Shown one piece after another: positions 8,813-33,174 of a stretch of 33,455 nucleotides of DNA. The notes below the pieces were generated by a model. The model was not told the DNA's origin and did not search any database. It saw only the letters and a program-made list of their open reading frames with translations. The stretch's first letter is position 1, and each line of letters opens with the position of its first letter. The translations under genes and the position numbers were made by a program. The DNA is taken from positions 1-33,455 of the forward strand of contig JBIKXN010000001.1 in the NCBI GenBank assembly GCA_044355765.1, in the 5' to 3' direction. The stretch is from Alphaproteobacteria bacterium (GTDB taxonomy: Bacteria > Pseudomonadota > Alphaproteobacteria > CACIAM-22H2).

Positions 8813-9006
8813 GCTGTCCACCGCAGCGCGACGCGACGTGCCCTGTTCAACCGTTGCTACGGTCCGACGCCGCAGGGCGTTCGACAAAGCTGCGGCCGTC
8901 CAATGCCGGCCTCCCCGCCGCAGTCGCCAGCTCCATTCGCATTTCGCGCCGCCAGGGAATCCCTCTCCGGTTCCAAGCGGCCGGAAACTGCGCGAGACGC
9001 GAGGGG

Positions 9007-10982: not shown

Positions 10983-10995
10983 GGGGAACGGATCT

Positions 10996-11766: not shown

Positions 11767-11797
11767 CAATCTGTCAGGCCGGCCTGCGCGCCGCGGG

Positions 11798-14005: not shown

Positions 14006-14012
14006 GGCGCGC

Positions 14013-14252
14013 ATGTTGAGCATCGCCTGCCCTTTCTGCGGTCCGCGCGCCGAACTGGAGTTTTCCTGCGGCGGCGAGATCGTGCGCCGGCCGGATGCCG
14101 CCGCGCCGCCCGACGCGGCCGCGCTGGCCGAGATCCTGTACATGCGCGACAATCTTCGCGGCGTGCACGAGGAATTGTGGTGGCATCGTCTGGGCTGCCG
14201 GCGCTGGTTCCGCCTACGGCGCGACACGCGCGACAACGGCATGCTGCCATGA
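14013..14252 (+). CDS. soxD: Sarcosine-oxidase-type delta subunit
   Basis: 79 aa: MLSIACPFCGPRAELEFSCGGE ... WWHRLGCRRWF, i.e. CxxC plus H/C zinc-ligand contexts. Sits between the beta and alpha genes. Its stop overlaps the soxA start (ATGA at 14249-14252). Confidence 0.85.
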   Translation: MLSIACPFCGPRAELEFSCGGEIVRRPDAAAPPDAAALAEILYMRDNLRGVHEELWWHRLGCRRWFRLRRDTRDNGMLP

Positions 14253-17191: not shown

Positions 17192-17589
17192 CGGGTGTCG
17201 AGGTTTTGCCGCTAGGGCCCGAGCGCATCGTCGCGATCGACGGCCGGCCGGACCCGACGGCGCTTGCGGGTTTCGTCTGCCTGCGTCTGGGCGAGGCGGA
17301 ATACATGCTGCTCGGCGCCACGGTCACCGATCTGCCGCCCGCCGGCGATGTACTCGCCGTCGATGTCGGCGACGCGTGGGAGGGTTGGTCGGTGGCTGGG
17401 CCCGGCGCGGCGGATTTCCTGGCGCGGATCTGCGCGCTCGACCTCGCCGGCTTCGCGCCCGGCGCCGCCGTGCGCACCGCGATGGGCGGGATCGCCGTCC
17501 TGCTGCGACGTATCGGCGAGACGAGCTGGGAGCTGCGCGTCGAGCGCAGCTATGCCGGCTGGTTCGAGGCGTGGCTGCGCGCGCCTTGA
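17188..17589 (+). CDS. soxG: Sarcosine-oxidase-type gamma subunit (short form)
   Basis: 133-aa ORF whose ATG overlaps the soxA stop (ATGA 17188-17191). Assigned by position, by the C-terminal segment GIAVLLRRIGETSWELRVERSYAGWFEAWL, and by SoxG-like character. It appears shorter than I expect for gamma subunits. Confidence 0.7.
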   Translation: MTGVEVLPLGPERIVAIDGRPDPTALAGFVCLRLGEAEYMLLGATVTDLPPAGDVLAVDVGDAWEGWSVAGPGAADFLARICALDLAGFAPGAAVRTAMGGIAVLLRRIGETSWELRVERSYAGWFEAWLRAP

Positions 17590-17593: not shown

Positions 17594-18490
17594 CTATCGG
17601 CGCGCCGCGTAGACGCGCTCCAGCCTGGCGAAGGCCAGGGACAGGAGGAGGCAGACCGCGAAATACACCGCCGCGACGGTCATCCAGACCTCGTAGATCC
17701 TGGTCGTGGATACCGCGACATCCGTCGCCATGAAGGTCAGTTCCTGGATCGAGACCAGCGAGACGATCGACGAGTCCTTGACCAGCGAGACGAACTGGTT
17801 GCACAGCGGCGGGACGGTGCGCGCGACCGCCTGCGGCAGGACGACCTTGCGCAGCGTCTGGCGCCGCGACAGGCCCATCGAAGCGGCTGCCTCCCATTGA
17901 CCCTTGGGGATCGATTCGATCCCGGCGCGGACGATCTCGGCGATGTAGGCCGCTTCGAACAGGGCGAGGCAGAGCAGACCGGAGACGAAGTTCTCGATCA
18001 TCCGCGGGTCGCCGAACAGGAAGGACAGCGTCGCCCGAGTCCCCGGCGAGAGCGCGGCGATCTTCTGCTCGAGCCCGAACTGGGGAACGATCTGGCTCGA
18101 CAGGAAGAAATAGAGGACGAAGATGATCACCAGCGGCGGTGTGTTGCGCATCAGTTCGACATAGCTGCGTGCGACCAGCCGCAGGAACGGATCGCGCGCC
18201 GTGCGCATCAGTCCGATGGCGAAACCGATCGCGGTCGCCAGCGCCATGCCGAAGATCGTCAGCCGGATGGTGTTGAACAGTCCATGCAGCAGGATGTTGG
18301 TGACCCAGCTCTGGCTCGCCTCGTCCCAGCGCAGGAAGAATTGCGGGATCGGCGCCCAGTTCCAGCGGTAGTTGTCGAGATGCGAGACGCGCCAGACGAA
18401 CCACGCCGCCGCGAGCGCGACGAGGGCGAGCAGCACCCAGTCGATCGTCTTGAGGCGCCGCCTTCCGGCGGGCGGCGGTGGCTGGCTCAT
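17594..18490 (-). CDS. Polar amino acid/opine-type ABC transporter permease
   Basis: 298 aa with ATG at 18490..18488. Contains an N-terminal TM helix, the core YVELMRNTPPLVIIFVLYFF, and the EAA loop EAAASMGLSRRQTLRKVVLPQAVARTVPPLCNQFVSLVKDSS. Confidence 0.85.
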   Translation of the reverse strand: MSQPPPPAGRRRLKTIDWVLLALVALAAAWFVWRVSHLDNYRWNWAPIPQFFLRWDEASQSWVTNILLHGLFNTIRLTIFGMALATAIGFAIGLMRTARDPFLRLVARSYVELMRNTPPLVIIFVLYFFLSSQIVPQFGLEQKIAALSPGTRATLSFLFGDPRMIENFVSGLLCLALFEAAYIAEIVRAGIESIPKGQWEAAASMGLSRRQTLRKVVLPQAVARTVPPLCNQFVSLVKDSSIVSLVSIQELTFMATDVAVSTTRIYEVWMTVAAVYFAVCLLLSLAFARLERVYAARR

Positions 18491-18506
18491 GGCGGCGGGA
18501 GATGCG

Positions 18507-18531
18507 GGGGAGCGGCGGCGCGCCGCTCCCC
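18507..18531 (-). promoter_or_regulatory. Intercistronic GC-rich stem-loop between the binding-protein gene and the downstream permease gene
   Basis: 18507-18517 (GGGGAGCGGCG) pairs perfectly with 18521-18531 (CGCCGCTCCCC), giving an 11-bp stem and a 3-nt loop. It lies in the 64-nt gap between the stop at 18555 and the start at 18490. No U-tract follows on the transcribed strand. Confidence 0.4.
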
Positions 18532-18554
18532 TGCTCTGGATCCGGCCCTATGCG

Positions 18555-19361
18555 TCAGGCCACGCGATCCGCCCAGTCGCGGGTCTCGAACCAGTAGGCG
18601 CGGCGCTCGCGCAGGAACCCGTCGGCATGGCGCGCCTTCACCCATTCGTTGAGCGCGGCCATCGACTTGGGATCGTTCTTGCGCATCGCGATGCCTTCGC
18701 GCTGCGGCTCGAATGGCTCTTTGAACGGCACGTACATCGTGGTCGGGTTGTTCAGCGCCGAGAACATGGGCCGGGGCGCCGATGCGACCCAGGCATGGGC
18801 CCGGCCGTTGACGACCTCCTGCTCGGCCTGCGCGTCGTCGTCGAACTGTCGCACGGTGGCCTTCGGCATCAGGCGGCCGATGACGCCGGGGACCGTCGTG
18901 CCGCGCCGACAGGTGATCGTGTAGTCGGCCCGGTCGAAATCGGCGATCTTGGAGTGGTTGGCGGCGATGCGGCTGTTGGCGACGATCAGCAGACCCGAAG
19001 TCGAATAGGGTTCGCTGAAATCGACCTGCTCCAGACGCGGCGGCGTGATCGACATGCCGCCGATGATGAAGTCGAAGCGTCCGGCCAGCAGCGCCGGGAT
19101 GATGCCGTCCCATGCGGTCGGGGTCGGTTCGTAGCGCACGCCCCAGTCCTGGGCGAGGCGGTTGCCGACGTCCAGTTCGAACCCGATCAGGCCGCCCTGC
19201 TTGTCGCGCATCGCCCAGGGGATGAAGGTCGACAACCCGGCCCGCAGCACCCCGCGCTGCTTGACCTGGTCGATGGCCGGCGTGGCTCCCGTCTGCGCGT
19301 GGGCGATGGACGGCGCGGCGGCGAGCGCCGCGGCTGTGGCGATGAAACTGCGTCTCTTCAT
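18555..19361 (-). CDS. ABC transporter substrate-binding protein, family 3 (polar amino acid/opine type)
   Basis: 268 aa with ATG at 19361..19359 and GGGAG upstream. RR-type signal peptide MKRRSFIATAAALAAAPSIAHAQ. Family segments are GFELDVGNRLAQDWG and WDGIIPALLAGRFDFIIGGMSITPPRLEQVDFSEPY. Confidence 0.85.
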   Translation of the reverse strand: MKRRSFIATAAALAAAPSIAHAQTGATPAIDQVKQRGVLRAGLSTFIPWAMRDKQGGLIGFELDVGNRLAQDWGVRYEPTPTAWDGIIPALLAGRFDFIIGGMSITPPRLEQVDFSEPYSTSGLLIVANSRIAANHSKIADFDRADYTITCRRGTTVPGVIGRLMPKATVRQFDDDAQAEQEVVNGRAHAWVASAPRPMFSALNNPTTMYVPFKEPFEPQREGIAMRKNDPKSMAALNEWVKARHADGFLRERRAYWFETRDWADRVA

Positions 19362-19416
19362 GGTCGATGCTCCCTGGTTGAAATGTCGGTTCGCGGGTCT
19401 TGGGCGATGTGCGGCC

Positions 19417-20211
19417 TCAGCCCTGTCGCGCCAGGCGGCGTTCGAGCACGCCGACGAGCAGGGACAGGGCGGTGGTGACGACGAGGTAGATCGCGCCGGT
19501 GATCAGGTAGATCTCGTAGGCGAGGAAGGTCTCGGAGACGATCGTGCGCGCCTCGTTGAAAAGATCGAACATGGCGATCGCGCTCACGATTGCCGAATGC
19601 TTGATCAGCGAGACGCCGAGGCTGGTGAGCGGCGGCAGCATGATCCGTATGGCCTGGGGCAGGACCACGAGGCGGTAGGTCGCGCCGCGGCCGAGGCCCA
19701 GGCTCATCGCCGCCTCTGTCTGCCCGCGCGGCACGGACAGGATGCCGCCGCGGAAGATCTCCGCCGCGAAGGCGCCCTCGAACACCGCGAGGGCGAAGAC
19801 GGCGGCGAACCAGCGGTCGAAGCCGAGGATGGGCGCGAGCACGAAGTAGAGCAGGTAGATCTGCACCAGCAGCGGCGTGTTGCGTACGGATTCGAGATAG
19901 CAGCGTGCGATCCCCCGCGCGACGACGCTGTCCGACAGGCGGCAGAGCGCGGTCAGCAGGCCGATCGCCAGCGCCAGGACGAAGCTGGCGGCCGAGATCT
20001 CCAGCGTGACCAGCAGACCTTTGAGCAGCGGCCCGGGATAGGCGGCGCCGTCGATGAAGCGCACGACGAAGCGCGTCGTCTGGTCCCACTTCCATGTGTA
20101 GTCCATCCGCGACGCGCCCCAGGCGACGGCGCCGACGACGGCGGCGGCGAAGAGCGCGAACTTGCTCCACGCGACGGCGTCTGCGGCGCGCGCCTGCGAG
20201 CGCGGGGTCAA
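19417..20211 (-). CDS. Polar amino acid/opine-type ABC transporter permease
   Basis: Core YLESVRNTPLLVQIYLLYFVLAP and EAA loop EAAMSLGLGRGATYRLVVLPQAIRIMLPPLTSLGVSLIKHSA. The only start that keeps the first TM helix is a TTG at 20211..20209, overlapping the upstream stop (TTGA). The start is therefore uncertain. Confidence 0.8.
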   Translation of the reverse strand: MTPRSQARAADAVAWSKFALFAAAVVGAVAWGASRMDYTWKWDQTTRFVVRFIDGAAYPGPLLKGLLVTLEISAASFVLALAIGLLTALCRLSDSVVARGIARCYLESVRNTPLLVQIYLLYFVLAPILGFDRWFAAVFALAVFEGAFAAEIFRGGILSVPRGQTEAAMSLGLGRGATYRLVVLPQAIRIMLPPLTSLGVSLIKHSAIVSAIAMFDLFNEARTIVSETFLAYEIYLITGAIYLVVTTALSLLVGVLERRLARQG

Positions 20212-21125
20212 GCGCCGCCCCTAAGGCCGCGCGTCGCGAGATGGAACTGCGTCGCGGCGTAGCCGCGCCGCGCATCGGCGAGATGCGGGGCCAGGATCTC
20301 GTGCAACTGCGCAAGGGCGTGGAATGGCACCGACGGAACGGCGTGGTGCTCGGCATGGAAAGCCATGTTCCAGCCCAGCCAGCGGACCGGCCGCCAGGTG
20401 ACCACCGTGCGGGTGTTCGACAGCCAGTCCGCCACATGCGGGCGGCCGACATGCTCCGACATGCGGATCAGCCGCATCACGGGCTCGCCGAGGATGCGCG
20501 GGATCAGCCAGTACTCGATCGCCGCCGTGCTGCCGGTCGCGACGGACAGGCCGGCGATCGCGGCGTAGACGACCCACATGATCCGGGTCTCGCGCGTCGC
20601 CTCGCGTTGCCGCTCGGGAGCGAGGAAGGATGCATCCTCGGCGGTGAAACGCCCGACGGGCAGGCGCAGGAGGACCGAGAACAGGCCGCGGAAATAGGGC
20701 CAGGCGCTGGCATAGAGCAGATAGCCGCGCAGCGTCTCGGCAGTCGCGATCATCTCCGGATCGCGGCCGGGTTGCTGCGTATGAGCATGATGCGCGGCAT
20801 GCTCGAAGCGGAAATGCGTCGGCGGAAGTCCAAGGGCGAGCGCGGCGAACCACTCGACGGCCTCGTTCAACGGCCGCGAGGCGAAGGCGCTGCCATGCGA
20901 GGTCTCGTGGAACGGGGCGAAGAGATGCACGACGACGATGCCCTGCGCGAACATCGCGACCAGCGCCCAGGGGCTCCCGCTCCAGGCCCAGATCCACGCC
21001 GCGCCGGCGACCAGAAGGGCAAGATGCGCCGCGAGGAAGACCAAGCCGGGGCCATCGCGGCGCGCACTCAGGGCGCGCACATGCGCGCGTCCGACGAGGT
21101 TCCGGATCTCTTGCTGCGAAGCCAT
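20208..21125 (-). CDS. Membrane fatty-acid-desaturase/hydroxylase-family di-iron protein
   Basis: 305 aa with ATG at 21125..21123. Hydrophobic N-terminal helices are present. The three histidine boxes read HETSH (HxxxH), HAAHH (HxxHH) and HAEHH (HxxHH), in the order and spacing typical of the family. Confidence 0.8.
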   Translation of the reverse strand: MASQQEIRNLVGRAHVRALSARRDGPGLVFLAAHLALLVAGAAWIWAWSGSPWALVAMFAQGIVVVHLFAPFHETSHGSAFASRPLNEAVEWFAALALGLPPTHFRFEHAAHHAHTQQPGRDPEMIATAETLRGYLLYASAWPYFRGLFSVLLRLPVGRFTAEDASFLAPERQREATRETRIMWVVYAAIAGLSVATGSTAAIEYWLIPRILGEPVMRLIRMSEHVGRPHVADWLSNTRTVVTWRPVRWLGWNMAFHAEHHAVPSVPFHALAQLHEILAPHLADARRGYAATQFHLATRGLRGGA

Positions 21126-21152
21126 CGCCGCCGATGCCGCCCGGCCCGCGCG

Positions 21153-22136
21153 TCAGCCGGCCCGTTGCCGGTACTTGAACGCCTTGTCGAAGCGGCCGAC
21201 GATGTATTCGCCGCAGGTCGTCGGCGGGTACTTCGCGGTCGCCGGATCGTCGAGCAGGTCGCGCGGATCGATCACCGTGTCGAAGGACGGGTCGAAGAAC
21301 ACCGCGACCGAATAGCGCTCGCGCCCGGACGTGTTGATCACGCGATGCGCGTTCGAACTGAAGCGGTTGTTGGTCCAGCGCGCCATCAGGTCGCCGACGT
21401 TGATGACCAGCGTGCCGGGGATGGGATGCGCGGTGATCCAGTCGCCGGCCTTGTTCAGCACCTGCAGGCCGCCGGTCGTGTCTTGCGACAGCAGGGTCAG
21501 GCCGCCGTAGTCGGTATGCGGCGCGACGCCGAACTGCTGTTCGCCGAGATCTGGCGGCTGCGGCGGGTAGTAGACCATCGATCCGCGCGCGAGCGGCTTG
21601 CGGAAATGCGGCTCGAAGAAGCCCGCGGGCCTGCCGAGGCTGAGCGCGAAGCCGCGCAGCAGACGTCTCCCGCAGCCGAGGATCGCGTCGTAATATGCCG
21701 ACAGGGTCGGGCGCATCTCGGGCATGAAGTCGGGCCATTGGTTCGGCCCCATCAGCTTCTTGCCGGCCTTGACGTCCGGGTCGTCGGCGCCGAGTTCCAG
21801 GCCCCAGAGGAAGCTCTCCTTGAGGTCGATCCTGGCGCCGGCATACATCTTGGCCTGCCCGACTGCGAGCCAGCCGCGATGGATCGCGTCGATCGTGGCG
21901 CGCGCCTTGGTCTCCGGCGGCAGGGCGAAGAAACGCCGGCTGACGTCGAAGATCGCGTCCACCTCGGCCTGCGGCACGCCATGGTTGCTGACATAGAAGA
22001 AGCCGATGCGCTCCGCGGCCTCGCGCATCCGGTCGGCGACGTCGCGCTGCGCCTGCAGGTCGTCGGCGGCGAGCGCCGCGACGTCGATGACCGGGATCTC
22101 CTCTACGGCGATGGTCTTGGCGGTTGCATAGGCCAT
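21153..22136 (-). CDS. 2-oxoglutarate/Fe(II)-dependent oxygenase, isopenicillin-N-synthase-like family
   Basis: Start at ATG 22136..22134 (MAYATAKTIAVEEIPVIDVAAL), with GAGGA upstream. N-terminal DIOX_N-like segment GFFYVSNHGVP. Facial triad HTD (APHTDYGGLTLL) plus distal His (SNAHRV). 2OG-binding context RYSVAVF. The upstream 113 residues of the track ORF are junk. Confidence 0.85.
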   Translation of the reverse strand: MAYATAKTIAVEEIPVIDVAALAADDLQAQRDVADRMREAAERIGFFYVSNHGVPQAEVDAIFDVSRRFFALPPETKARATIDAIHRGWLAVGQAKMYAGARIDLKESFLWGLELGADDPDVKAGKKLMGPNQWPDFMPEMRPTLSAYYDAILGCGRRLLRGFALSLGRPAGFFEPHFRKPLARGSMVYYPPQPPDLGEQQFGVAPHTDYGGLTLLSQDTTGGLQVLNKAGDWITAHPIPGTLVINVGDLMARWTNNRFSSNAHRVINTSGRERYSVAVFFDPSFDTVIDPRDLLDDPATAKYPPTTCGEYIVGRFDKAFKYRQRAG

Positions 22137-22212
22137 GGTCGATGTCCTCGGGACTGGCGCTTGCCGGAGATCGGCGCGCGCTGGCCAGACTAGCGCCGGG
22201 CCGGGGCGCGCG

Positions 22213-22821
22213 TCACGGCGGCAGGGGCAGGGCCCGCGGCGGCCGGGAAAAGACCCGGTGCACCATCGGTTCGAACACGGACAGCGGCGCCTCCGGCAAT
22301 CCCGGGGCGATGGTGTTCTGATCGTACTTGGCCACGAATTCCGCGGTCGCCGCGAAGGCGGGGTGCCCGCGCCAGCGTTCGCGCACGAAACGGTCGTTGC
22401 CCTCGAGCTCGCGGCAATGGAGCGACTGAAAATACATGTGTCGTTCGAGCATCCAGACCAGGTCGTCGCCGACATAGGGGGCGAGCAGCTGCGCGGCGAA
22501 GGCGCCGTGGTTCTGCGGACAGGCTATGAAGCCGATGTCGTGGAGCAGGGCGACGACCACGTAGTCCTCGGCGCGTCCATCGCGCATGGCGAGCGTCGCC
22601 GCCTGAACGCAGTGGCGGAAATTATTGACCCGATAGCCGAAGGTCGCGTCGTCGGCGCCGGCCGACAGCAGGCGCAGGGCCTGCCTCGCCTGCTCCTCGG
22701 CATAGTAGCTCCGGCGCTGGCTGTTGAGCAGGTCCCAGTCCACGGCGCGGAAATCGTCGAGCGTGTCCTTTTCCACGTAGGACCAGGACGGGTCGAGCAG
22801 ACGGCAATTGGCTTCGGTCAT
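22213..22821 (-). CDS. HD-domain protein with a PhnZ/TmpB-like (mixed-valent di-iron oxygenase) ligand pattern
   Basis: Start at ATG 22821..22819 ([15 protein letters not shown]), with GGGAAG upstream. Candidate ligands read directly from the translation are H70 (NNFRHCVQ), H94-D95 (ALLHDIG), H105 (PQNHGAF), H128 (LERHMYF) and D166 (AKYDQN). The segment [32 protein letters not shown] resembles my recollection of the PhnZ core. Confidence 0.75.
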
Positions 22822-22846
22822 GCAGCTTCCCGGCGCTTCGACCGGC

Positions 22847-22878
22847 AGAGTGCTATGGCTGGACGAAATTTGCACTCT
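22847..22878. promoter_or_regulatory. Inverted repeat in the divergent HD-operon/hutH control region (candidate operator)
   Basis: AGAGTGC (22847-22853) and GCACTCT (22872-22878) are perfect 7-bp inverted repeats, separated by 18 nt of the most AT-rich DNA in the window. CGTTTTTC follows on the + strand. Confidence 0.3.
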
Positions 22879-22910
22879 CGTTTTTCTGCCGCGCCGCGTT
22901 AGGTTTGCTT

Positions 22911-24464
22911 ATGACGCATGTGATTTCTCCCGGCGGGCTTTCTCTCGCCGCGCTGCGGCGCTGGCACGACGATGCCGGTCCGCTGGTTCTCGATCCGGCA
23001 GCCGCGCCGGCCGTCGCCGCCTCCGCCGCGGCCGTCGACCGGATTCTCGCCAAGGGCGACGCCGTCTACGGGGTGAACACCGGCTTCGGCAAGTTGGCGA
23101 CGACGCGCATCGCGCCCGACCGGCTGCGCGACCTGCAGACCGCGCTGGTGCTGTCGCATAGCGTCGGCGTCGGTCCGGCGCTGCCGCCCGAGACGGTGCG
23201 GATGATCGCGATACTCAAGGCGGCAAGCCTCGCGCGCGGCCATTCAGGCGTGCGCCCCGCGGTGATCGAGGCGCTGCTGGCGGCGATCAATCGCGGCGTC
23301 GTTCCCGTAATCCCGGCCAAGGGGTCGGTCGGAGCGTCTGGCGATCTGGCGCCGCTCGCGCATCTCAGCGCCACGCTGATCGGCCATGGCGAGGCGTTTC
23401 TCGGCAACGAGCGCATGCCGTCGGCGCAGGCCCTGCAGCGCGTGGGGCTCGAGCCGCTGCGCCTCGAGGCCAAGGAGGGGCTTGCGCTGCTCAACGGCAC
23501 GCAGGTCTCGACCGCCCTGGCGCTCGTGGGACTGTTCGCGGCCGAGGACGCCTTCGCCGCGGCGGTGATCGCGGGTGCGCTGAGCATCGACGCCGCGAAG
23601 GGCAGCGATGCGCCGTTCGACGACCGCATCCATGCCATCCGCGGCCAGCGCGGCCAGCGCGACGTCGCGGCGGTATATCGCCACCTGCTCGAAGGCTCCG
23701 CGATCCGGGCTTCGCATCTCGACTGCGAGCGGGTGCAGGATCCCTACTGCCTACGTTGCATGCCGCAGGTGATGGGCGCTTGTCTCGACTCGATCCGGCA
23801 TGCCGCCGACATCTTCCTGCGCGAGGCCAACGGCGTTTCCGACAATCCGCTGGTCTTCGCGGACGCCGGCGAGATCCTGTCCGGCGGAAACTTCCATGCC
23901 GAGCCGGTGGCGATCGCCGCCGATCTTCTGGCGATCGCGATCGCCGAGATCGGCGCGATCGCCGAGCGCCGCATCGCGATGCTGGTCGATCCTTCGACGA
24001 ATGGCGGGCTGCCGGCCTTCCTGGTCCGCGAGCCCGGCCTGAATTCCGGCTTCATGATCGCCCATGTCACGGCGGCCGCGCTGGCCAGCGAGAACAAGTC
24101 GCTGGCGCATCCCTCGAGCGTCGACAGCCTTCCGACCTCCGCCAACCAGGAGGACCATGTCAGCATGGCCACGCATGCCGCCCGCCGCCTCGGTGAGATG
24201 GCGCGCAATACCGCGACGATCGTCGGGATCGAGCTGATGGCTGCGTGCGACGGCATCGGCTTCCACGCGCCGCTGGCGACCAGCGCCCGGCTGACGACCG
24301 CGATCGCGGCGCTGCGCGCGCGGGTGGCGCCGGTGGAGCGCGACCGCTTCCTCGCGGGCGACATCGACGCCGCGCGGGAACTGGTCGAAAGCGGCGTGTT
24401 CGGGCGTTGGATGACCGAAGGGCTTATGCCCAGCGGTGGTGCGCAAGCGGAGGGCGGACGATGA
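22911..24464 (+). CDS. hutH: Histidine ammonia-lyase (MIO-dependent aromatic amino acid lyase family)
   Basis: ATG at 22911; the track start 22905 is a TTG two codons upstream. Supporting segments are [11 protein letters not shown] and the MIO-forming [16 protein letters not shown] (Ala-Ser-Gly encoded at 23334-23342). Length is 517 aa, and urocanase lies downstream. Confidence 0.9.
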
Positions 24465-25069
24465 CGAGTTGGATCAGGATGCTGCAATACGAAGAGTCGG
24501 AAGGCCATCTGCGCCAGCTCTACGACCGGGTGAAAGGGCCGGGCGGATCCATCGACAACGTGATGAAGATCCACTCGCTTCGCCCGCACACGATGGAAGG
24601 GCATTCGGCGCTCTACAAGAGCGTGCTGCACCATACCGGCAACACGACGCCCGTCTGGTTCCTGGAATGCCTGGGCATCTACACCTCGCTGGCCAACCGA
24701 TGCGACTATTCGGTCGCGCACCACTTCGCCGGCCTGACCCGTCTGCTCAAGGACGAGGCGCGTGCGAAGGCGATCTACGAGGCGCTGGCCGCAGGCGCGC
24801 CCGAGCGCGTCTTCGCGGGCAAGGAGCTGGCTCTGCTTCGCTACGTCAGGAAACTGACCCTGCAGCCGCAGAAGATGGAGCAGGGCGACGTGCAGGCATG
24901 CCGCGCCGCGGGCTGCACCGATGCCGAGATCTTCGAGGCCAATCAGGTCTGCGCCTATTTCAACTACTCGAACCGGCTGCTGAACGGGCTCGGCGTCACG
25001 ACGCAGGGCGATCTGCTCGGCTATTCGCCGCCCAACACCGACAAGCTCGACGATTGGGAGCATCAATGA
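24461..25069 (+). CDS. Carboxymuconolactone decarboxylase/AhpD-like 'peroxidase-related enzyme' family protein
   Basis: The ATG at 24461 overlaps the hutH stop (ATGA). [58 protein letters not shown] matches my recollection of the N-terminus of the uncharacterized peroxidase-related CMD subfamily. The Cys/His context is [12 protein letters not shown]. Confidence 0.75.
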
Positions 25070-26766
25070 CGATGGCCACCGTACCTTCCCGGCGCGACAA
25101 TGCGCGCCGCATCGCGGCGCCGCGCGGTTCCGACCTCACCTGCCGGTCCTGGCAGTCGGAGGCGGCGATGCGCATGCTGATGAACAATCTCGACGCCGAG
25201 GTCGCCGAGCGACCCGAGGAACTCGTCGTCTATGGCGGCATCGGCCGCGCCGCGCGCGACTGGCAGAGCTTCGACCGCATCGTCGCAAGCCTGAAGACGC
25301 TTGCCGACGACGAGACGCTGCTCGTGCAGTCCGGCAAGCCGGTCGGCATATTCCGCACCCATGCCGACGCGCCACGTGTCCTCCTGGCCAATTCGAACCT
25401 GGTTGGGCACTGGAACAACTGGTCACATTTCCACGAACTCGACCGCAAGGGCCTGATGATGTACGGCCAGATGACGGCCGGGTCGTGGATCTATATCGGC
25501 TCGCAGGGCATCGTGCAGGGCACCTACGAGACCTTCGTCGAGGCCGGACGCCAGCATTACGGCGGCGACCTGCGCGGGCGCTGGATCCTCACTGGCGGAC
25601 TCGGCGGCATGGGGGGTGCGCAGCCGCTCGCCGCGGTCTTCGCCGGCGCCTGCATGCTGGCTGTCGAATGCCAGCCGAGCCGGATCGAGAAGCGGCTGGA
25701 GACGAAGTATCTCGACCGCTGGACCAAGGATCTCGACGAGGCGCTGGACATGATCCGGGCCGCGACCGCGAAGGGCGAGGCGATCTCGGTCGGCCTGCTC
25801 GGCAACGCCGCCGAGGTGTTCCCCGAACTGGTGCGGCGCGCCAAGGCAGGCGACGCGCGCGCGCGGCCGGACATGGTCACCGACCAGACTTCGGCGCATG
25901 ATCCGATCAACGGCTATCTGCCCGTCGGCTGGACGCTCGACGACCATGCGCGGCTGCGCGAGAGCGACCCGGCGCGCGTCGAGAAGGCGGCGAAGGAATC
26001 GATGGCCGTGCATGTCCGCGCCATGCTCGATTTCCATCGCATGGGCGTACCCACGCTCGACTACGGCAACAACATCCGCCAGATGGCCAAGGAGATGGGC
26101 GTCGCCGACGCCTTCGACTTCCCGGGTTTCGTGCCCGCCTATATCCGGCCGCTCTTCTGCCGCGGTGTCGGGCCGTTCCGCTGGTGCGCCCTGTCCGGCG
26201 ATCCCGAGGACATCTACCGCACCGACGCGAAGATGAAGGAGTTGTTCCCCGAGGACCGGCATCTGCATCGCTGGCTCGACATGGCGCGCGCGCGTATCCG
26301 GTTTCAGGGTCTTCCGGCGCGCATCTGCTGGGTCGGCCTGGGCGGCCGCGCAAAGGCAGGGCTCGCCTTCAACGAGATGGTCCGGCGCGGCGAACTCAAG
26401 GCGCCCATCGTGATCGGTCGCGACCATCTCGACTCCGGGTCGGTCGCCTCGCCCAACCGCGAGACCGAGGCCATGCTGGACGGCTCCGACGCTGTCGCGG
26501 ACTGGCCGCTGCTCAACGCGCTGCTCAACACCGCGTCGGGCGCGACCTGGGTCAGCCTGCATAACGGCGGCGGCGTGGGCATCGGGTTCTCGCAGCATGC
26601 CGGCATGGTGATCGTATGCGACGGCAGCGAGGCCGCGGATCGTCGGCTGGAGCGCGTCCTGACCAACGATCCTGGCACGGGGGTGATGCGGCACGCGGAT
26701 GCCGGCTACGATATCGCCGTCGCCTGCGCGCGCGAGCACGGGCTCAAGCTGCCGATGCTCGGGTGA
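25066..26766 (+). CDS. hutU: Urocanate hydratase (urocanase)
   Basis: The ATG at 25066 overlaps the upstream stop (ATGA). Segments [50 protein letters not shown] and [12 protein letters not shown] (NAD site) are characteristic of urocanase. Length is 566 aa. Confidence 0.92.
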
Positions 26767-26773
26767 GCCTGGC

Positions 26774-27073
26774 ATGGATGCGGCGGTGCTGAAGGCCTCG
26801 TTGGCCGGGCAGGTCGCGCCGCAGGGGCTGGCGCGTCCGGTCCTGGCGCTCTGGCATTGCGGGCGCGGCGAGTGGGATGCGGCGCACGGACTGGTGCAGC
26901 AGGCGGAAGGCGAGCCCGCGCATGACTGGGTGCATGCGCATCTCCACCGTGTCGAGGGCGACCTTGCGAATGCCGGCTACTGGTATCGGCGCGCAGGCAG
27001 GCCGGTCGCGCGCGGATCGCTCGAGTCCGAGTGGGCCGAGATCGCGGGGGCGCTTCTGGCGAGGTTGGAATGA
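26774..27073 (+). CDS. Small conserved-looking protein of unknown function (99 aa)
   Basis: The ATG at 26774 lies 7 nt after the hutU stop, and its own stop overlaps the next start (ATGA 27070-27073). The sequence has ordinary composition, including WVHAHLHRVEGDLANAGYWYRRAG. Coding status is inferred mainly from tight operon packing and frame-consistent codon bias. Confidence 0.55.
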   Translation: MDAAVLKASLAGQVAPQGLARPVLALWHCGRGEWDAAHGLVQQAEGEPAHDWVHAHLHRVEGDLANAGYWYRRAGRPVARGSLESEWAEIAGALLARLE

Positions 27074-28026
27074 AGACCGTCGTCTGCATCGAGCGCGCGT
27101 CGCTGGGGCCCGGCGTCAGCCTGCGGGCGCCGCGGTTCGCGCATGTCTGGCGCGACCATGACCGTACCTCGGCCGGAGACATCGTCGCCCGGCTCGCCGG
27201 CGCCGATATCGCGGTGGTCAATAAGCTGCCGATCGGCGAGGAGGTCCTGGCCCGTACCCCGGATCTGCGCATGATCGCGGTGACGGCGACGGGTACCGAC
27301 AATGTCGATCTCGCAGCCTGCCGCAGGCGCGGCATCGTGGTGTCGAATGTTCGCGGCTATGCGACGACGACCGTGCCCGAGCATACTTTCGCGCTGATCC
27401 TGGCGTTGCGGCGCGGTGTGGTCGGATACGCCCAGAGCGTCCAGCGCGGCGATTGGCAGAAAGCCGCGCAGTTCTGCTATTTCGACTTTCCGATCTCCGA
27501 CCTCCGCGGTTCGCGCCTGGGCATCGTCGGCGGCGGCGCCATCGGCGCGGCGGTCGCGTCGCTCGGTCGTGCCTTCGGGATGGACGTCGTCTTCTCGACC
27601 CAGCGCGGCGGGCCGGAACGCCCGCATTACATTCCGTTCGAGGCGGTCATCGAGACCGCGGACGTGCTGACGCTGCATTGCCCGCTGACGGCTGCGACCC
27701 GCGGCATGATCGACCGGTCCGTGCTGCGGCGCATGAAGCCGGGGGCGATCCTGGTCAACACGGCGCGTGGCGGCCTGATCGTCGACGCGGATCTGGTCGA
27801 GGCGCTGCGCGGCGGCTGGATCGCCGGTGCGGCCATCGATGTCACCACGCCCGAGCCGCCGCCCCCCGACCATCCCTTCATGCTGCTCGCCGGCCATCCC
27901 GGGTTCATCCTGACCCCGCATGTCGCCTGGGCCAGCGTCCAGGCGCGCCAGGCGGTGGCCGACCAGGTGATCGACAATATCGAGGCCTTCGTCGCCGGTG
28001 CGCCGCGCAACGAGGTGGTCAGATGA
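27070..28026 (+). CDS. D-isomer-specific 2-hydroxyacid dehydrogenase (glycerate dehydrogenase/hydroxypyruvate reductase-like)
   Basis: Start at ATG 27070 (MKTVVCIERASL). Supporting segments are TATGTDNVDLAACRRRGIVVSNVRGY, the Rossmann motif LGIVGGGAIGAAVA, VNTARGGLIVDADLVEAL, AAIDVTTPEP and LTPHVAW. Confidence 0.85.
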   Translation: MKTVVCIERASLGPGVSLRAPRFAHVWRDHDRTSAGDIVARLAGADIAVVNKLPIGEEVLARTPDLRMIAVTATGTDNVDLAACRRRGIVVSNVRGYATTTVPEHTFALILALRRGVVGYAQSVQRGDWQKAAQFCYFDFPISDLRGSRLGIVGGGAIGAAVASLGRAFGMDVVFSTQRGGPERPHYIPFEAVIETADVLTLHCPLTAATRGMIDRSVLRRMKPGAILVNTARGGLIVDADLVEALRGGWIAGAAIDVTTPEPPPPDHPFMLLAGHPGFILTPHVAWASVQARQAVADQVIDNIEAFVAGAPRNEVVR

Positions 28027-28805
28027 TTTCGGCCCGCCGCCGCGGCGAGTTTCCGGCGGGCGTGCCGCGCGGCCTGCCGGGCGGCCGGGAGGCCGCGCTC
28101 TATCGGCGCGTCTACGACGTGATGCGGCGCGCGATCGCGGACGGCGCCTGGGCGCTCGGCGAATCGCTGCCCAGCGAGGCGGGGCTCGGGGCGCGGTTCG
28201 GGGTCAGCCGCATCACGATTCGCCAGGCGATGCAGATGCTGCAGAACGCCGGCTATATCCGCACGCAGCGGGCGCGGCGCGCGGTCGTGATCGCGCGCGA
28301 CCCGCTCGGCGCGTCGGGAGACACGATCGACACGATCGAAGAACTGATCGAGGCTGCAAGCGACACGCGGCTGCGCATCCTGAGCTGGCGCAGCGAACTG
28401 GCGCCCGAGGCGGCGCAGATCCTGGGCGTGCCGCCGGGAACCGATCTCAAGTGCCTGCGCGGCGTCCTCATGCGCGCGCGCACCCCGCACGCGCGGTCGA
28501 TCATCTATTTCCACCCCTCGATCGGCGCCCGGCTCAAGCGCGCCGATTTCGACGACGTGATCGTCTTCCGGGTCATGCGCCGCGAACTGGGCATCCAGCT
28601 CGTCGACGTCAAGCGGACGATCTGGGCCGAACTTGCCACTCCGGAGGACGTCGCGCAGCTCGGCGTCAAGCGGGGCGACGCGATGCTATGCACCCGGCTG
28701 GTGTATCGCGGGCCGCAGGGGCTGCCCGTCGAGGTCACCCTCTCGCGCTACCCGGGCCGCGAATTCAGCCTGACCTACAGCATCGATGTCGGTGGCGACG
28801 CTTGA
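28023..28805 (+). CDS. GntR-family transcriptional regulator, HutC/UTRA subfamily-like
   Basis: The ATG at 28023 overlaps the upstream stop (ATGA). The winged-helix segment is LPSEAGLGARFGVSRITIRQAMQMLQNAGYIRTQRARRAVV, followed by a C-terminal effector domain of about 170 aa. It is the last gene of the hut-like operon. Confidence 0.85.
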   Translation: MISARRRGEFPAGVPRGLPGGREAALYRRVYDVMRRAIADGAWALGESLPSEAGLGARFGVSRITIRQAMQMLQNAGYIRTQRARRAVVIARDPLGASGDTIDTIEELIEAASDTRLRILSWRSELAPEAAQILGVPPGTDLKCLRGVLMRARTPHARSIIYFHPSIGARLKRADFDDVIVFRVMRRELGIQLVDVKRTIWAELATPEDVAQLGVKRGDAMLCTRLVYRGPQGLPVEVTLSRYPGREFSLTYSIDVGGDA

Positions 28806-28876
28806 CTCCCGTCCCCGGGAAGGGATGATGTCATAACAAGTTGCACGGCCGCGTCGCGGCCGGCGCGGGAGGGAAC

Positions 28877-29656
28877 ATGCAGGTCGATCTGAAGGGCCGG
28901 GTCGCATTGGTGACCGGCGCCGCAACGGGCATCGGCAAGGCCTGCGCGCTGCGCCTGCGCGATAGCGGAGCGACGGTCGTCTTCAGCGACCGCGACCTCG
29001 ACCGCGCCCGCGAGACGGCCGGCAACGACGGCGACGCGATCGCGCTCGACGTCGCCGACCGTGCGGCGATAACCCATGCCGTCGACGACGTTCTTGCCCG
29101 TCATGGCCGGATCGACATCCTCGTCAACAATGCCGGGATCGGCGTGCGCGCCGCCGACCGCAAGACGGTCGACGAGTTCCCGGTCGAGGCCTGGGACGAG
29201 ATGATCGCCATCGACCTGACCGGCGTGTTCCTGATGAGCCGCGCCGTCGCAGCCGCCATGCGGCGCGCGCGCGCCGGTGCGATCGTCAACATCGCCTCGG
29301 TGCTGGGGCTGGTGCCGATGCGCCTGCAGAGTTCCTATGTCGCGGCCAAGTCCGGCGTCGTCAACCTGACGCGCAGCATGGCGCTGGAGCTCGCCAAGGA
29401 CGGCATTCGCGTCAACGCGGTGGCTCCCGGATCCACCGCCACCGAAGGCTGGCAGCGCTGGATCCAGGACCCGTCGAGCGAGGTTCAGGATCTGCATCGC
29501 AGCCTGATGTCCCATATTCCGATGGGGCGGCCAGCGCGCACGGAGGAGATCGCCAACGGCGTCCTCTTTCTCGCGTCGCCGGCCGCATCATACGTGACCG
29601 GCCATACCCTGGTCGTAGACGGCGGCTGGACCGCTGGCTACGCCCGCGACTGGTAA
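28877..29656 (+). CDS. Short-chain dehydrogenase/reductase (SDR)
   Basis: Start at ATG 28877 (MQVDLKGRVALVTGAATGIGKA), with GGGAGGGA at 28867-28874. Also present are NNAGI and the catalytic YVAAKSGVV (YxxxK). Confidence 0.85.
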   Translation: MQVDLKGRVALVTGAATGIGKACALRLRDSGATVVFSDRDLDRARETAGNDGDAIALDVADRAAITHAVDDVLARHGRIDILVNNAGIGVRAADRKTVDEFPVEAWDEMIAIDLTGVFLMSRAVAAAMRRARAGAIVNIASVLGLVPMRLQSSYVAAKSGVVNLTRSMALELAKDGIRVNAVAPGSTATEGWQRWIQDPSSEVQDLHRSLMSHIPMGRPARTEEIANGVLFLASPAASYVTGHTLVVDGGWTAGYARDW

Positions 29657-29678
29657 ATCCGACGGAGGCAGAGAGAAG

Positions 29679-32126
29679 ATGACCATCGCCGTCAAGCGCA
29701 AGCCCGCCGCAAAGCAAGCGGCGCGTCCTGCCGCCCGCCCGAAGCCGAACGATGCGCTCGCAGATCTCGATCGCGAGCAACTTGTCGGCATGTATCGCGA
29801 GATGCAGCTGCTGCGGAAATTCGAGCTGGCGGCGCAGGTCGCCTGCCGCGCGGGCGAGACGCCTGGCTTCCTGCATCTCTATGTCGGCGAAGAGGCGGTC
29901 GCGGTCGGCGTCTGCGCGCATCTGCGCCGGTCGGACTGGATCACCTCGACGCATCGCGGGCACGGCCATGCGCTCGCCAAGGGCATGGATCCGAACGTGC
30001 TGATGGCCGAACTCTACGGCAAGGGCGACGGATGCTGCGGCGGACGAGGCGGCACGATGCATCTCTACGATCCCACGGTCGGCCTGTTCGGCACCAACGG
30101 GCTGGTCGGCGGCGGGATCCCGTCCGCTGTCGGTGCCGCGATCTCTGCGAAGCATCGCAAGACCGGCGACGTCGCGGTCGCCTTCTTCGGCGACGGCGCG
30201 ACGAACCATTCGGCCTTCCACGAGTCCGTGAACTTCGCCGGGTTCATGCGCGCGCCGGTGATCTTCGTGTGCGAGAACAACCTCTACGCGACGGCGACGG
30301 CGTTGAGCAGCGTGACGCTCAATCCCGAGATCGCGACGCGGGCGGCCGCCTACGGCATCCCGGGCGTCGCCGTCGACGGCAACGACGTCGTCGCGATGTG
30401 GCGGGTGATGAAGCAGGCGGCGGAGCGCGCGCGGCGCGGCGAGGGACCGACGCTGATCGAGGCCAAGACCTATCGCACGGTCGGCCATCACGAGGGCGAC
30501 CCGGTCACCGGCGTCTACCGCACCCAGGGCGAGGTCGACCAGTGGGCCGAACGCTGCCCCATCAAGCGACTGCGTGCCCAGATCGTCGACGATCTCGAAC
30601 TTGTCGAAGCCAGGGAACTCGACGCGATCGACGCGGAGATCGACAAGGTCGTCGCCGGCGCGATCGACTTCGCGCGCAAATCGCCAGAGCCCGATCCGCA
30701 CGCCTATGCGCGCCATGTCTTCGCCGACCAGCTCAATCCGGCCGAGGCGATGCTGCCCGGCGCGGAGAAATCCGGCGGCCCCGAGACCAGCTGGCTCGAC
30801 GCCGTGCGCGACGGCATCGCCGAGGAGATGCGGCGCAACCGCGACATCATGTACTTCGGCGAAGGCACGGGCGAGCGCGGCGGCACCTTCGCCCACACCA
30901 AGGGGCTGTGGCAGGAATTCGGCGCCCATCGCATGGTCGATACGCCGATCTCCGAGCTGGGCTTCACCGGCGCTTCGCTGGGCGCCTCGGCGACCGGCGT
31001 GCGCTGCATCGCCGACCTGATGTTCGCCGATTTCCTGTTCGAGGCGGCAGGGCAGATCGCGCTGCAGGCCGCGAAGCTGCGCTACATGTCCAACGGCCGC
31101 ATGCAGGCACCGATGATCGTGCGCGTGGGCTGCGGCGCGGTGCGATCCGCAGGGCCGCATCATTCGGGGACGTATCATCCGGCCTGGGCGCATATCCCCG
31201 GGCTGATCGTCTGCATGCCGTCGACGCCGGCCGATGCCAAGGGCCTCATGAAGACGGCGCTGCGCGCGAGCGACCCGGTGCTGATGCTCGAGACGAAGGC
31301 GCTGTTCTCGACCAAGGGACCGGTGCCGGCGGGCGAGCATTTCGTGCCCTTCGGCGTCGCGCGCATCGCGCGCGAGGGTCGCGATCTGACCATCGTCTCG
31401 GCCGGGCAGCTGGTCCATCGCTCGCTCGAGGCCGCCGCGGCGCTGGCCAAGGAGGGCATCGAGTGCGAGGTGATCGATCTGCGCACGATCCAGCCGCTCG
31501 ACGTGGAAACCGTCGCGGCGAGCGTGCGCAAGACCCATCGCTGCCTGGTCGCCGACGAGGGCTGGGCGCCGTTCGGCGTCGGTGCCGAGATCGGCCAGTC
31601 GATCCAGGAGGCCTGCTTCGACCATCTCGACGGTCCGGTCGCGCGGCTGCACACGGATTTCGTCTCGCATCCCTTCGCGCCGTCGCTCGAGCGGGCGATG
31701 CTGGTCAACACCGACCGCATCGTCGCCGCGGCGCGGCGTGTGCTGTCGGGCGAGGCGTTGCCGATCCGCCGTCCGCGCGCCGGCGGGATCGACCGCGCGG
31801 TGCCGGCGCCGGCGGCGCCGGTCGCGGCGCCTGCTTCGGCTCCTGTGCAGGCGGCGGCCGCGCCGCCCGCCGCGCCGGCCGAGGTCCAGGTGCCGGGCAC
31901 CGCGATCAAGATGCCGTTCGGCGACCTGACCGTCAGCGAGGGCAAGGTGGTCCGCTGGCTCAAGCAGCCGGGCGACGCGGTGCAGGCGAAGGAGACGGTG
32001 GTCGAGGTCGAGACCGACAAGGCCGTGGTCGAGATCGAGGCGCCGGTGGGCGGTCGGCTCGGTCCGCAATTGCGTATCGCGGGCGAGATCGTGAAGATGG
32101 GCGAAACCATCGGCTCGGTGGCGTGA
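29679..32126 (+). CDS. Fused thiamine-diphosphate-dependent 2-oxoacid/acetoin dehydrogenase E1 alpha + E1 beta + C-terminal lipoyl-attachment domain (815 aa)
   Basis: One uninterrupted frame. The alpha part (aa ~28-345) carries the ThDP motif FFGDGATNHSAFHESVNFAGFMRAPVIFVCENN. The beta part (aa ~369-690) includes RMVDTPISELGFTGASLGASATG and CMPSTPADAKGLM. An Ala/Pro linker follows (aa ~700-740). The lipoyl domain (aa ~741-815) has VVEVETDKAVVEIEAP, with the target Lys codon at 32019-32021. Confidence 0.85.
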   Translation: MTIAVKRKPAAKQAARPAARPKPNDALADLDREQLVGMYREMQLLRKFELAAQVACRAGETPGFLHLYVGEEAVAVGVCAHLRRSDWITSTHRGHGHALAKGMDPNVLMAELYGKGDGCCGGRGGTMHLYDPTVGLFGTNGLVGGGIPSAVGAAISAKHRKTGDVAVAFFGDGATNHSAFHESVNFAGFMRAPVIFVCENNLYATATALSSVTLNPEIATRAAAYGIPGVAVDGNDVVAMWRVMKQAAERARRGEGPTLIEAKTYRTVGHHEGDPVTGVYRTQGEVDQWAERCPIKRLRAQIVDDLELVEARELDAIDAEIDKVVAGAIDFARKSPEPDPHAYARHVFADQLNPAEAMLPGAEKSGGPETSWLDAVRDGIAEEMRRNRDIMYFGEGTGERGGTFAHTKGLWQEFGAHRMVDTPISELGFTGASLGASATGVRCIADLMFADFLFEAAGQIALQAAKLRYMSNGRMQAPMIVRVGCGAVRSAGPHHSGTYHPAWAHIPGLIVCMPSTPADAKGLMKTALRASDPVLMLETKALFSTKGPVPAGEHFVPFGVARIAREGRDLTIVSAGQLVHRSLEAAAALAKEGIECEVIDLRTIQPLDVETVAASVRKTHRCLVADEGWAPFGVGAEIGQSIQEACFDHLDGPVARLHTDFVSHPFAPSLERAMLVNTDRIVAAARRVLSGEALPIRRPRAGGIDRAVPAPAAPVAAPASAPVQAAAAPPAAPAEVQVPGTAIKMPFGDLTVSEGKVVRWLKQPGDAVQAKETVVEVETDKAVVEIEAPVGGRLGPQLRIAGEIVKMGETIGSVA

Positions 32127-32145
32127 GCCGGAAAGCGGGGGCGGG

Positions 32146-33174
32146 ATGGGACGGCGTCTTCTTCTGGTCAACTATCTCCATGCGGACGATGCGTTCGAGC
32201 GCGCGGTGGCGGCCGAACATGGCGCGCATCTCGACATCCTGAGGCCGACGGACGGCAAGGCTTCGGAGATCCCGACGGCGTTGGCCGCCGGGGCGGAGGG
32301 GTTGATCAGCTATTCGGCGGTGCTGAAGATCGCGCTTCCGCCCGAAGCCTTTCCCAATGTGCGCTGCGTGCTCCGCTCGGGCGTGGGCTACGACACGATC
32401 GACGGCGCGGCCTGGGGCGCACGCGGCATTCCGGTCTTCAACGTGCCCGACTACGGCACCTCGGAAGTGGCCGATCACGCGATCGCGCTGATGCTGGCGC
32501 TGACCCGCGGCACTGCCGCCTATCACGACGCGATGCGTCGCGATCCGCGCAAGAACTGGACCTATACGGTTGCGCCGACGGTCCGGCGGCTGCGGACCTC
32601 CGTGTTTGGCGTCCTCGGGCTCGGGCGCATCGGGCTCGCCGCCGCGCGCCGCGCGCAGGGCTTCGGCATGGACGTGGTGTTCTACGACCCCTACCAGCCC
32701 AGCGGTTTCGAACTGGCGACCGGGCTGAAGCGCGCCCGCAGCCTCGAGGACCTTCTCAAGGTCGCCGACGTCGTCAGCGTGCATACGCCGCTCAGCGACG
32801 AGACGACAGGGTTGCTCGGCGCAAAGGCCTTCGCGGCCGCGAAGCCGGGGCTGATCGTCATCAACACCGCGCGCGGCCCAGTCGTCGATCTCGATGCGCT
32901 CTACGACGCGCTCAGGAGCGGCCGCGTCGCGGCGGCCGGTCTCGACGTGCTGCCCAAGGAACCGGCGGATCCGGATCACAAGCTCATCCGGGCCTTTCTC
33001 GATCGCGAAGAGTGGCTCGAGGGCCGCTTCACGCTCAGCCCGCACGCCGCCTTCTACAGCCCGGCGGCGAACGACGACCTGCGGCGCAAGACGATCGAGA
33101 CGGTACTCGAGCATCTGGAAACCGGAGCGCTGGCCAATTGCGTCAACCGCGACCGGCTCGTCCGCAAGGCCTGA
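32146..33174 (+). CDS. D-isomer-specific 2-hydroxyacid dehydrogenase, CtBP-like
   Basis: 342 aa starting 19 nt after the E1 fusion stop. Supporting segments are GVGYDTIDGAAWGARGIPVFNVPDYGTSEVADHAIALMLAL, the Rossmann motif GVLGLGRIGLAAA, INTARGPVVDLDALYDAL..AAGLDVLPKEP and LSPHAAFYS. Confidence 0.85.
   Translation: MGRRLLLVNYLHADDAFERAVAAEHGAHLDILRPTDGKASEIPTALAAGAEGLISYSAVLKIALPPEAFPNVRCVLRSGVGYDTIDGAAWGARGIPVFNVPDYGTSEVADHAIALMLALTRGTAAYHDAMRRDPRKNWTYTVAPTVRRLRTSVFGVLGLGRIGLAAARRAQGFGMDVVFYDPYQPSGFELATGLKRARSLEDLLKVADVVSVHTPLSDETTGLLGAKAFAAAKPGLIVINTARGPVVDLDALYDALRSGRVAAAGLDVLPKEPADPDHKLIRAFLDREEWLEGRFTLSPHAAFYSPAANDDLRRKTIETVLEHLETGALANCVNRDRLVRKA

Follow-up and report, generated by a model that had tools for sequence, protein, structure and literature searches.

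The genes for histidine ammonia-lyase (hutH) and urocanate hydratase (hutU) of an uncultured alphaproteobacterial genus from lake water lie on either side of a gene for an AhpD/CMD-fold protein (the CMD gene), as seen in a stretch of 33,455 nucleotides (here called the window) that forms contig C362 of a metagenome-assembled genome (MAG; 3.70 Mb, 562 contigs, 90% complete). We consider it probable that these genes belong to a five-step histidine utilization (Hut) pathway that is ordinary except for being split in two, with the hutH/hutU half inside an island of oxygenase genes and the genes for the later steps in a gap of the assembly. In this scheme, hutH and hutU would have come to flank the CMD gene of a conserved catabolic module that comprises an HD-like protein, the CMD protein, a 2-oxoglutarate (2OG) oxygenase and an ATP-binding cassette (ABC) importer. 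HutH would convert histidine to urocanate and HutU would convert urocanate to 4-imidazolone-5-propionate, from genes whose transcription, together with that of the accessory genes, would start at an 89-bp divergent promoter with an inverted repeat that is conserved and occurs once in the genome. The remaining steps would fall to the products of a second, unlinked locus, namely HutI (imidazolonepropionase), HutF (formiminoglutamate deiminase) and HutG (N-formylglutamate amidohydrolase [FGase]). This reading starts from the assignment of HutH and HutU, the gene order held across the genus, the hutG-hutI/hutF locus of congeners, the break in synteny at contig ends and the membership of the CMD gene in an oxygenase module, all of which we established directly.

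The hut genes themselves are textbook genes that annotation pipelines call correctly, and what is specific to the genus is the rearrangement of this known pathway within an uncharacterized oxygenase island. The lead that it offers is that the histidase and urocanase genes of an abundant lake-water genus share a promoter region with a widespread, uncharacterized module of HD-like, single-cysteine AhpD-like and 2OG proteins. Should the two prove to be functionally linked, histidine or one of its derivatives would be a concrete candidate for the substrate of the module.

HutH, HutU and the genes of the later steps

Families were assigned to the proteins of the window by Pfam and NCBIfam scans, in which the equivalog cut-offs decided identity. 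Together with the open reading frame (ORF) listing and translation, these scans bore out six codirectional genes where the first-pass annotation had placed them:

22911-24464, + strand: hutH, histidine ammonia-lyase, 517 aa (TIGR01225; alignment with Pseudomonas putida histidine ammonia-lyase, HAL)
24461-25069, + strand: AhpD/CMD-fold "peroxidase-related" protein, 202 aa, a single-Cys variant (PF02627, TIGR01926)
25066-26766, + strand: hutU, urocanate hydratase, 566 aa (TIGR01228; 1UWL)
26774-27073, + strand: 99-aa protein of an uncharacterized family with a tetratricopeptide repeat (TPR)-like fold (predicted structure, homologue alignment)
27070-28026, + strand: D-isomer-specific 2-hydroxyacid dehydrogenase, 318 aa, glyoxylate/hydroxypyruvate-reductase-like (PF02826, PF00389)
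28023-28805, + strand: GntR-family regulator with a UTRA effector domain, 260 aa (PF00392, PF07702)

HutH scored 671 bits against TIGR01225 (670.6 bits in the genome search; cut-off, 539.15) and aligned with P. putida HAL at 569 bits over residues 5-508, free of gaps through the region that forms the 4-methylideneimidazole-5-one (MIO) group. The MIO triad, reported earlier as intact, is indeed so (Ala142-Ser143-Gly144), and Tyr53, Ser82-His83 and the NGT, QDPY..R, FHAEP and NQEDH motifs all align with those of the P. putida enzyme. From published HAL structures, we take Tyr53 to be catalytic and the Ser-His pair to determine selectivity. HutU, which is encoded by a single-copy gene in the assembly, scored 970 bits against TIGR01228 (cut-off, 375) and 972 bits against P. 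putida urocanase (1UWL), and it stayed below the cut-offs of the thiourocanate-type hydratases (696 against 930 bits for NF058530 and 721 against 880 bits for NF058531). Thiourocanate and S-methyl-thiourocanate hydratases, ergothionase and histidine-betaine trimethylammonia-lyase are homologues of HutU and HutH, and the thiourocanate-type and ergothionase routes degrade N-trimethylated histidine derivatives via (thio)urocanate. In contrast, HutU of the window lies below both thiourocanate-type cut-offs, and HutH keeps the MIO triad that ergothionase-type lyases lack. Judged by sequence, HutH and HutU are thus the canonical histidine ammonia-lyase and urocanate hydratase, and the suggestion that they might act on a histidine-like compound is not borne out, given the equivalog cut-offs passed, the thiourocanate-type cut-offs missed and active-site motifs that are those of P. 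putida HAL.

The window lacks hutI, hutF and hutG, as had been stated, and in a profile search of the whole assembly hutI, hutF, FGase-type hutG and formiminoglutamase all stayed under their family cut-offs. The best scores in the assembly were 44.5 against 298 bits for hutI, 82.6 against 413 bits for hutF, 89 against 279 bits for TIGR02017 (a paralogue cut by a contig end) and 117 against 229 bits for TIGR01227. The FGase fragment, on contig C282, is a weaker paralogue that is present in every congener.

We compared the MAG with the genomes of eight other species of the genus (nine genomes with our own) and found that six of the eight have, on another contig or at a separate locus, hutG-hutI and a divergently oriented hutF that all pass their cut-offs, with scores of 304 to 362 bits for hutG (TIGR02017), 462 to 469 bits for hutI and 463 to 617 bits for hutF. 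All three genes are present in the closest relative, which has a CMD protein 96% identical to that of the window. In congener G004 the locus spans positions 8987-12460 of contig C165 (hutG, 8987-9757; hutI, 9796-10923; hutF, 11096-12460). When we searched our assembly with this locus by blastn, its left flank was found on contig C254, up to ~260 nt from the contig end, and its right flank was found on contig C206 from base 4 onward, leaving ~5.4 kb that hold hutG, hutI and hutF unassembled between the two; two other congener loci gave the same pattern. Because both flanks stop at contig ends, the absence of the three genes is best read as an assembly gap; to judge from this synteny, the fragmentation of the MAG is its most likely cause. 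The apparent loss of hutI, hutF and hutG should not be taken for a truncated pathway.

The first-pass annotation had proposed such a truncation, with the products of the window processing histidine only as far as imidazolone propionate or feeding some other chemistry. In its strict form, this alternative holds that the species truly lacks hutI, hutF and hutG and that the imidazolone propionate is either excreted or handled by the CMD, 99-aa and dehydrogenase proteins. It would account for the subthreshold scores of all three genes in the assembly, for two congeners that likewise lack them and for the tight packing of the accessory genes with hutH and hutU. However, the assembly is only 90% complete and broken into 562 contigs, both flanks of the congener locus stop at contig ends, and the closest relative has all three genes. 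In addition, the CMD and 99-aa genes occur in non-hut contexts in other lineages, and in congeners inserted genes part the dehydrogenase and regulator genes from the core of the cluster. We therefore regard a truncated pathway as very unlikely.

Several points do weigh against the split pathway that we favor. The three genes have not been seen in the genome under study itself. The locus is also missing from two congeners, G005 (75% complete) and G008 (93% complete, 8% contamination), in which DNA synteny searches for the hutGIF flanks returned short, weak matches only, and a real loss of hutG-hutI/hutF in some species is possible. Moreover, scanning metagenome contigs for an exact 26-nt pattern taken from the end of C254, as a bridge across the gap, gave no match, a result that is uninformative.

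Because the congeners have hutI, hutF and an FGase-type hutG, the pathway would be the five-step variant that uses HutF and FGase, as in Pseudomonas and Caulobacter (hutH, hutU, hutI, hutF, FGase-type hutG and HutC). HutH and HutU are equivalog-level matches to that system, and the cluster likewise includes a GntR/UTRA regulator. Unlike that system, the genes here are spread over two loci, an AhpD-like gene stands between hutH and hutU, genes for a TPR-like protein and a 2-hydroxyacid dehydrogenase follow, and the promoter is shared with the operon of an HD-like oxygenase.

Gene order and junctions of the cluster

Reading the junctions from the sequence bore out the four ATGA overlaps (hutH/CMD, CMD/hutU, 99-aa/dehydrogenase and dehydrogenase/GntR), and the remaining junction, hutU/99-aa, is a 7-nt gap. 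In a rough genome-wide count, NTGA overlaps made up ~12% of close same-strand ORF pairs, so that ATGA at four of five junctions is denser than average packing. The overlaps had been taken to suggest stoichiometric co-translation. This proposal did not survive the comparison with congeners, where the CMD/hutU overlap of 4 nt is kept in six of seven and is the sole conserved one of the four; the other junctions are gaps of 13 to 35 nt or multikilobase insertions (hutH/CMD is mostly a gap of 13 to 14 nt). To judge from these alignments, the overlaps fit ordinary tight packing with translational coupling, which may well operate at the ATGA junctions, rather than a conserved stoichiometric device. 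The persistence of the CMD/hutU overlap would fit a functional tie between the two proteins, which the split pathway does not require and which therefore also counts against it.

Within the genus this order is a common one, with the CMD gene adjoining hutU in eight of eight genomes; as for an explanation, we did not find the arrangement described in the literature on hercynine and urocanate degradation, on HD-oxygenase neighborhoods or on hut genes in Alphaproteobacteria. Two loci, L029 (a contig from a Joint Genome Institute [JGI] metagenome) and L034 (from congener G004), reproduce the entire island, with Sox-type, ABC importer, fatty acid (FA)-desaturase-like, 2OG and HD-like genes on one strand and hutH, CMD, hutU, 99-aa and dehydrogenase genes on the other. 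The order 3' of the 99-aa gene is fluid among congeners. Inserts place the 99-aa and dehydrogenase genes 3.7 to 4.3 kb apart in L046 and L047, and a gene of the gamma-glutamyltranspeptidase (GGT) family, absent from the window, lies between the dehydrogenase and GntR genes in L029 (11346-13019) and L047 (9975-12197).

It seems likely that hutH and hutU are co-transcribed with the CMD, 99-aa, dehydrogenase and GntR genes. A terminator and promoter scan of positions 22100-29800 found no terminator bounding the six genes and only one weak promoter-like site after the GntR gene. The window is found almost unchanged in at least 18 metagenome runs from lake water, and lake metagenomes also yielded identical DNA contigs. 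One freshwater RNA library contained two short, near-identical contigs, covering 24751-24977 (CMD gene) and 26608-26768 (3' end of hutU); these are a weak hint of transcription of CMD and hutU, since carry-over of DNA is possible, and the parts not covered are uninformative.

The CMD gene and its oxygenase module

The CMD protein contains PF02627 and passes TIGR01926 marginally (82.9 bits against a cut-off of 81.8); its closest structure is the AhpD protein 6K40, at 60 bits. Relative to the AhpD-like TIGR01926 proteins (6K40, 2OYO) it has the same fold and family and, in the active-site helix, retains the first Cys together with the His-His after it. It lacks their second Cys, however, and with it the CxxC/CxxU redox motif: its C-D-Y-S aligns with the CxxC of 6K40 (C-V-Y-C), the second Cys being replaced by Ser. 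This motif, including the Ser, is invariant in 23 orthologues (85% mean column identity). Since the second Cys is replaced by an invariant Ser, canonical dithiol chemistry is unlikely.

In our survey of the context of the CMD gene, we mapped the proteins of the window onto 80 species loci around orthologues with 58 to 96% identity. CMD orthologues of the module span Alpha-, Beta- and Gammaproteobacteria, and the order hutH > CMD > hutU occurs only in the seven loci of the genus. Most other loci pair the CMD gene with an HD-like and/or a 2OG oxygenase gene, often as a codirectional triad HD-like > CMD > 2OG. At the loci outside the genus, ABC importers of the amino acid type are usual, and Sox-type oxidase or Rieske genes are frequent. 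Of these 73 loci, ~70 lack any hut gene in the 10 kb around the CMD gene, which is also present, usually with HD-like and/or 2OG genes, in genomes without hutU or hutI (G014, G019). The first-pass annotation had described the AhpD-like gene as inserted into hut. The survey turns this description around: because the usual partners of the CMD gene are HD-like and 2OG oxygenases, and hut genes flank it only in this genus, it is the hut genes that were wrapped around a gene of the module.

The remaining genes of the module lie in a divergent arm (17594-22821, - strand), the order of which is conserved in L029, L034 and L042 to L046, and were assigned by Pfam and NCBIfam:

22213-22821, - strand: HD-like di-iron protein
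21153-22136, - strand: 2OG/Fe(II) oxygenase
20208-21125, - strand: membrane FA-desaturase-like enzyme
17594-20211, - strand: amino-acid-type ABC importer

This HD-like/CMD/2OG module is uncharacterized though widespread. We take its nearest characterized analogues to be PhnY*/PhnZ and TmpA/TmpB, each a 2OG hydroxylase with an HD-domain di-iron oxygenase. The HD-like protein of the window matches the PhnZ and TmpB models around the HD motif only, and its 2OG enzyme is of the DIOX_N/IPNS type and not of the TauD/PhyH type. The genus also differs from the module elsewhere, in that its CMD gene lies on the strand opposite to the HD-like and 2OG genes, between hutH and hutU.

Directly upstream of the island come a second ABC set of the amino acid type, accompanied by a Rieske oxygenase (9657-12616, - strand), and a soxBDAG-type heterotetrameric oxidase (12823-17589, + strand). 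Many of the 80 species loci likewise have orthologues of these genes close to the CMD gene.

The conserved CMD/hutU junction could also be explained if the single-Cys AhpD-like protein were a dedicated helper of HutH or HutU, for example, one that repairs or guards an oxidation-sensitive active site while neighboring oxidases make H2O2, and had been recruited repeatedly. The ATGA overlap kept in six of seven congeners speaks for this idea. It would predict company that the protein does not keep: its orthologues usually stand with HD-like and 2OG oxygenases, and in a sample of 400 genomes of Pseudomonadota no TIGR01926 match among those listed (the 93 weakest lie outside the listing) was within 5 kb of hutU except that of the window, the next nearest being 14 kb away in G116. 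Fusions of CMD to HutH or HutU, sought among longer proteins, were not found, which is weak evidence. In view also of the missing second Cys of CxxC, we think a helper role improbable.

A broader alternative makes the whole island, hutH and hutU included, one pathway for an N-methylated compound derived from histidine, such as hercynine, methylhistidines or N-alpha-methylhistidines. The ABC system would import the compound, the Rieske oxygenase, the Sox-type oxidase and a DAO protein would demethylate it, the 2OG, HD-like and CMD proteins would trim it oxidatively, and the histidine or urocanate so formed would leave by way of HutH and HutU. That hut genes and module repeatedly stand side by side in several lineages would then be due to a substrate in common. 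Indeed, hut genes abut the island in no fewer than three lineages outside the genus (L068, Elioraea and G036), more than pure chance suggests, and this again counts against the split pathway as we propose it. Just as hutH and the HD-like gene share a divergent promoter here, L068 independently has a hutH (66% identical; TIGR01225, 673 bits) divergent from the HD-like gene. In G036, from a neighboring genus, the ABC importer and CMD gene of the island have a complete canonical hutF/hutI-hutH-hutG-hutU cluster as their immediate neighbor, and in Elioraea (L071, L077) a hutF-like gene (53% identity) adjoins the importer. In three other Tagaea-type genomes, hutU lies 21 to 27 kb from the CMD gene. 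The presence of the soxBDAG-type oxidase and the Rieske oxygenase in the window would likewise suit this pathway.

A further element that such a pathway could draw on is a second HAL homologue, on contig C101 (3287-4822, - strand; locus L033), of 511 aa and 40% identical to HutH, which falls just under the TIGR01225 cut-off at 532.7 bits. It reads GSVGY---IVHGAH where HutH has the MIO region and so lacks the Ala-Ser-Gly triad, and it keeps Tyr53 and the Ser-His pair; its gene adjoins those for a nucleoside hydrolase and an MR/MLE-family protein. The absence of MIO marks the HAL homologues that have been characterized as ergothionase and histidine-betaine trimethylammonia-lyase (bioRxiv 10.1101/2025.08.13.670108). 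However, the C101 paralogue is on another contig and scored 207 bits against ergothionase (6S7J), compared with 355 bits for its top match in the PDB.

The survey also speaks against a pathway for a histidine derivative, as ~70 of the 73 loci outside the genus are free of hut genes within 10 kb and as G014 and G019 have the CMD gene and neither hutU nor hutI. Since most module loci have no hut gene nearby, the association between hut and the module is suggestive only. The substrates that this pathway would give to the island enzymes are, besides, conjectural, and the pairing of a 2OG enzyme with an HD oxygenase is, to our knowledge, known elsewhere only for the cleavage of phosphonate C-P bonds. 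We consider this pathway, and the series of steps drawn up for it, unlikely, if less so than the helper role or the truncated pathway, and keep the split Hut pathway as our working explanation.

Beyond the divergent pair, hutH of L068, an unrelated alphaproteobacterial MAG, is followed by a Meth_synt_2 gene (cobalamin-independent methionine synthase family; L068:6622-9400). It is divergent from an HD-like > CMD > 2OG > ABC unit, and no hutU was found within 10 kb.

Control region, regulator and accessory genes

The two arms of the island are separated by a short intergenic region:

22822-22910, no strand: divergent control region, 89 bp, between the HD-like start codon (22819-22821, - strand) and hutH

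Within it is a perfect inverted repeat, AGAGTGC (22847-22853) N18 GCACTCT (22872-22878), which is kept while its flanks diverge in an alignment with two congener loci. The pattern GAGTGC-N12-24-GCACTC occurs once in the 3.7-Mb assembly (0.13 expected), and, of seven congener loci examined, five (L029, L042, L043, L044 and L045) keep AGTGC-N18-GCACT upstream of hutH. The repeat is a candidate operator of the divergent promoters, possibly for the GntR regulator encoded in the cluster, as its position and conservation suggest.

By its architecture, the GntR/UTRA protein belongs to the HutC/PhnF subfamily. It is not a HutC equivalog, in contrast to the regulator of Pseudomonas and Caulobacter, since it reaches 76.9 of the 220 bits demanded by TIGR02018, and no HutC equivalog above cut-off was found in any of the nine genomes of the genus. 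Nor does the window contain a HutC-type GT[AC]TA[GT]AC box, and between hutI and hutF the congeners lack the inverted repeat. With a regulator that is not a HutC equivalog and a repeat that does not recur at hutI/hutF, a single hut regulon is unsupported, which is a further difficulty for a pathway divided between two loci.

The hutI/hutF intergenic region of congeners (L030:8925-9096, from G004, and L031) has features of its own. It carries a conserved CTTGCACGCGGGTCGA..GGGCAAG repeat, unlike the repeat 5' of hutH, and a TTCTAGAC element that agrees with the HutC-type GT[AC]TA[GT]AC box at seven of eight positions.

The 99-aa protein has no Pfam or NCBIfam match. It has 2286 homologues, and in their alignment His38, His54, His58, Glu45, Asp51, Glu61 and a Trp are invariant. 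Its AlphaFold2 (AF2) model, with a predicted local distance difference test score (pLDDT) of 96.4, is a six-helix TPR-like fold; a fold search with it returned only generic TPR-type matches in the PDB, with E values of at least 0.2, and unnamed clusters in the Atlas. Homologues in other genera adjoin malic-enzyme genes (standing after that gene) and prephenate-dehydrogenase genes, and since they stand beside a malic-enzyme gene elsewhere, the 99-aa protein is not hut specific.

The dehydrogenase has the catalytic and NAD-binding domains of its family (PF00389, PF02826) and stayed below all NCBIfam equivalog cut-offs (best, PRK06487 with 356 against 448 bits); its best PDB matches are 5TX7 and glyoxylate reductases. 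Three further paralogues of the 2-hydroxyacid dehydrogenase family are present in the window. The CMD, 99-aa and dehydrogenase genes would add no new step to the Hut pathway and would instead work for the neighboring island or for general redox maintenance.

Downstream of the GntR gene, with no terminator between them, positions 28841-33174 (+ strand) encode a short-chain dehydrogenase/reductase (SDR), an acetoin/pyruvate-dehydrogenase-like protein of 815 aa in which E1 alpha, E1 beta and a lipoyl domain are fused, and one more 2-hydroxyacid dehydrogenase. L029 keeps these genes in the same order; L047 does not.

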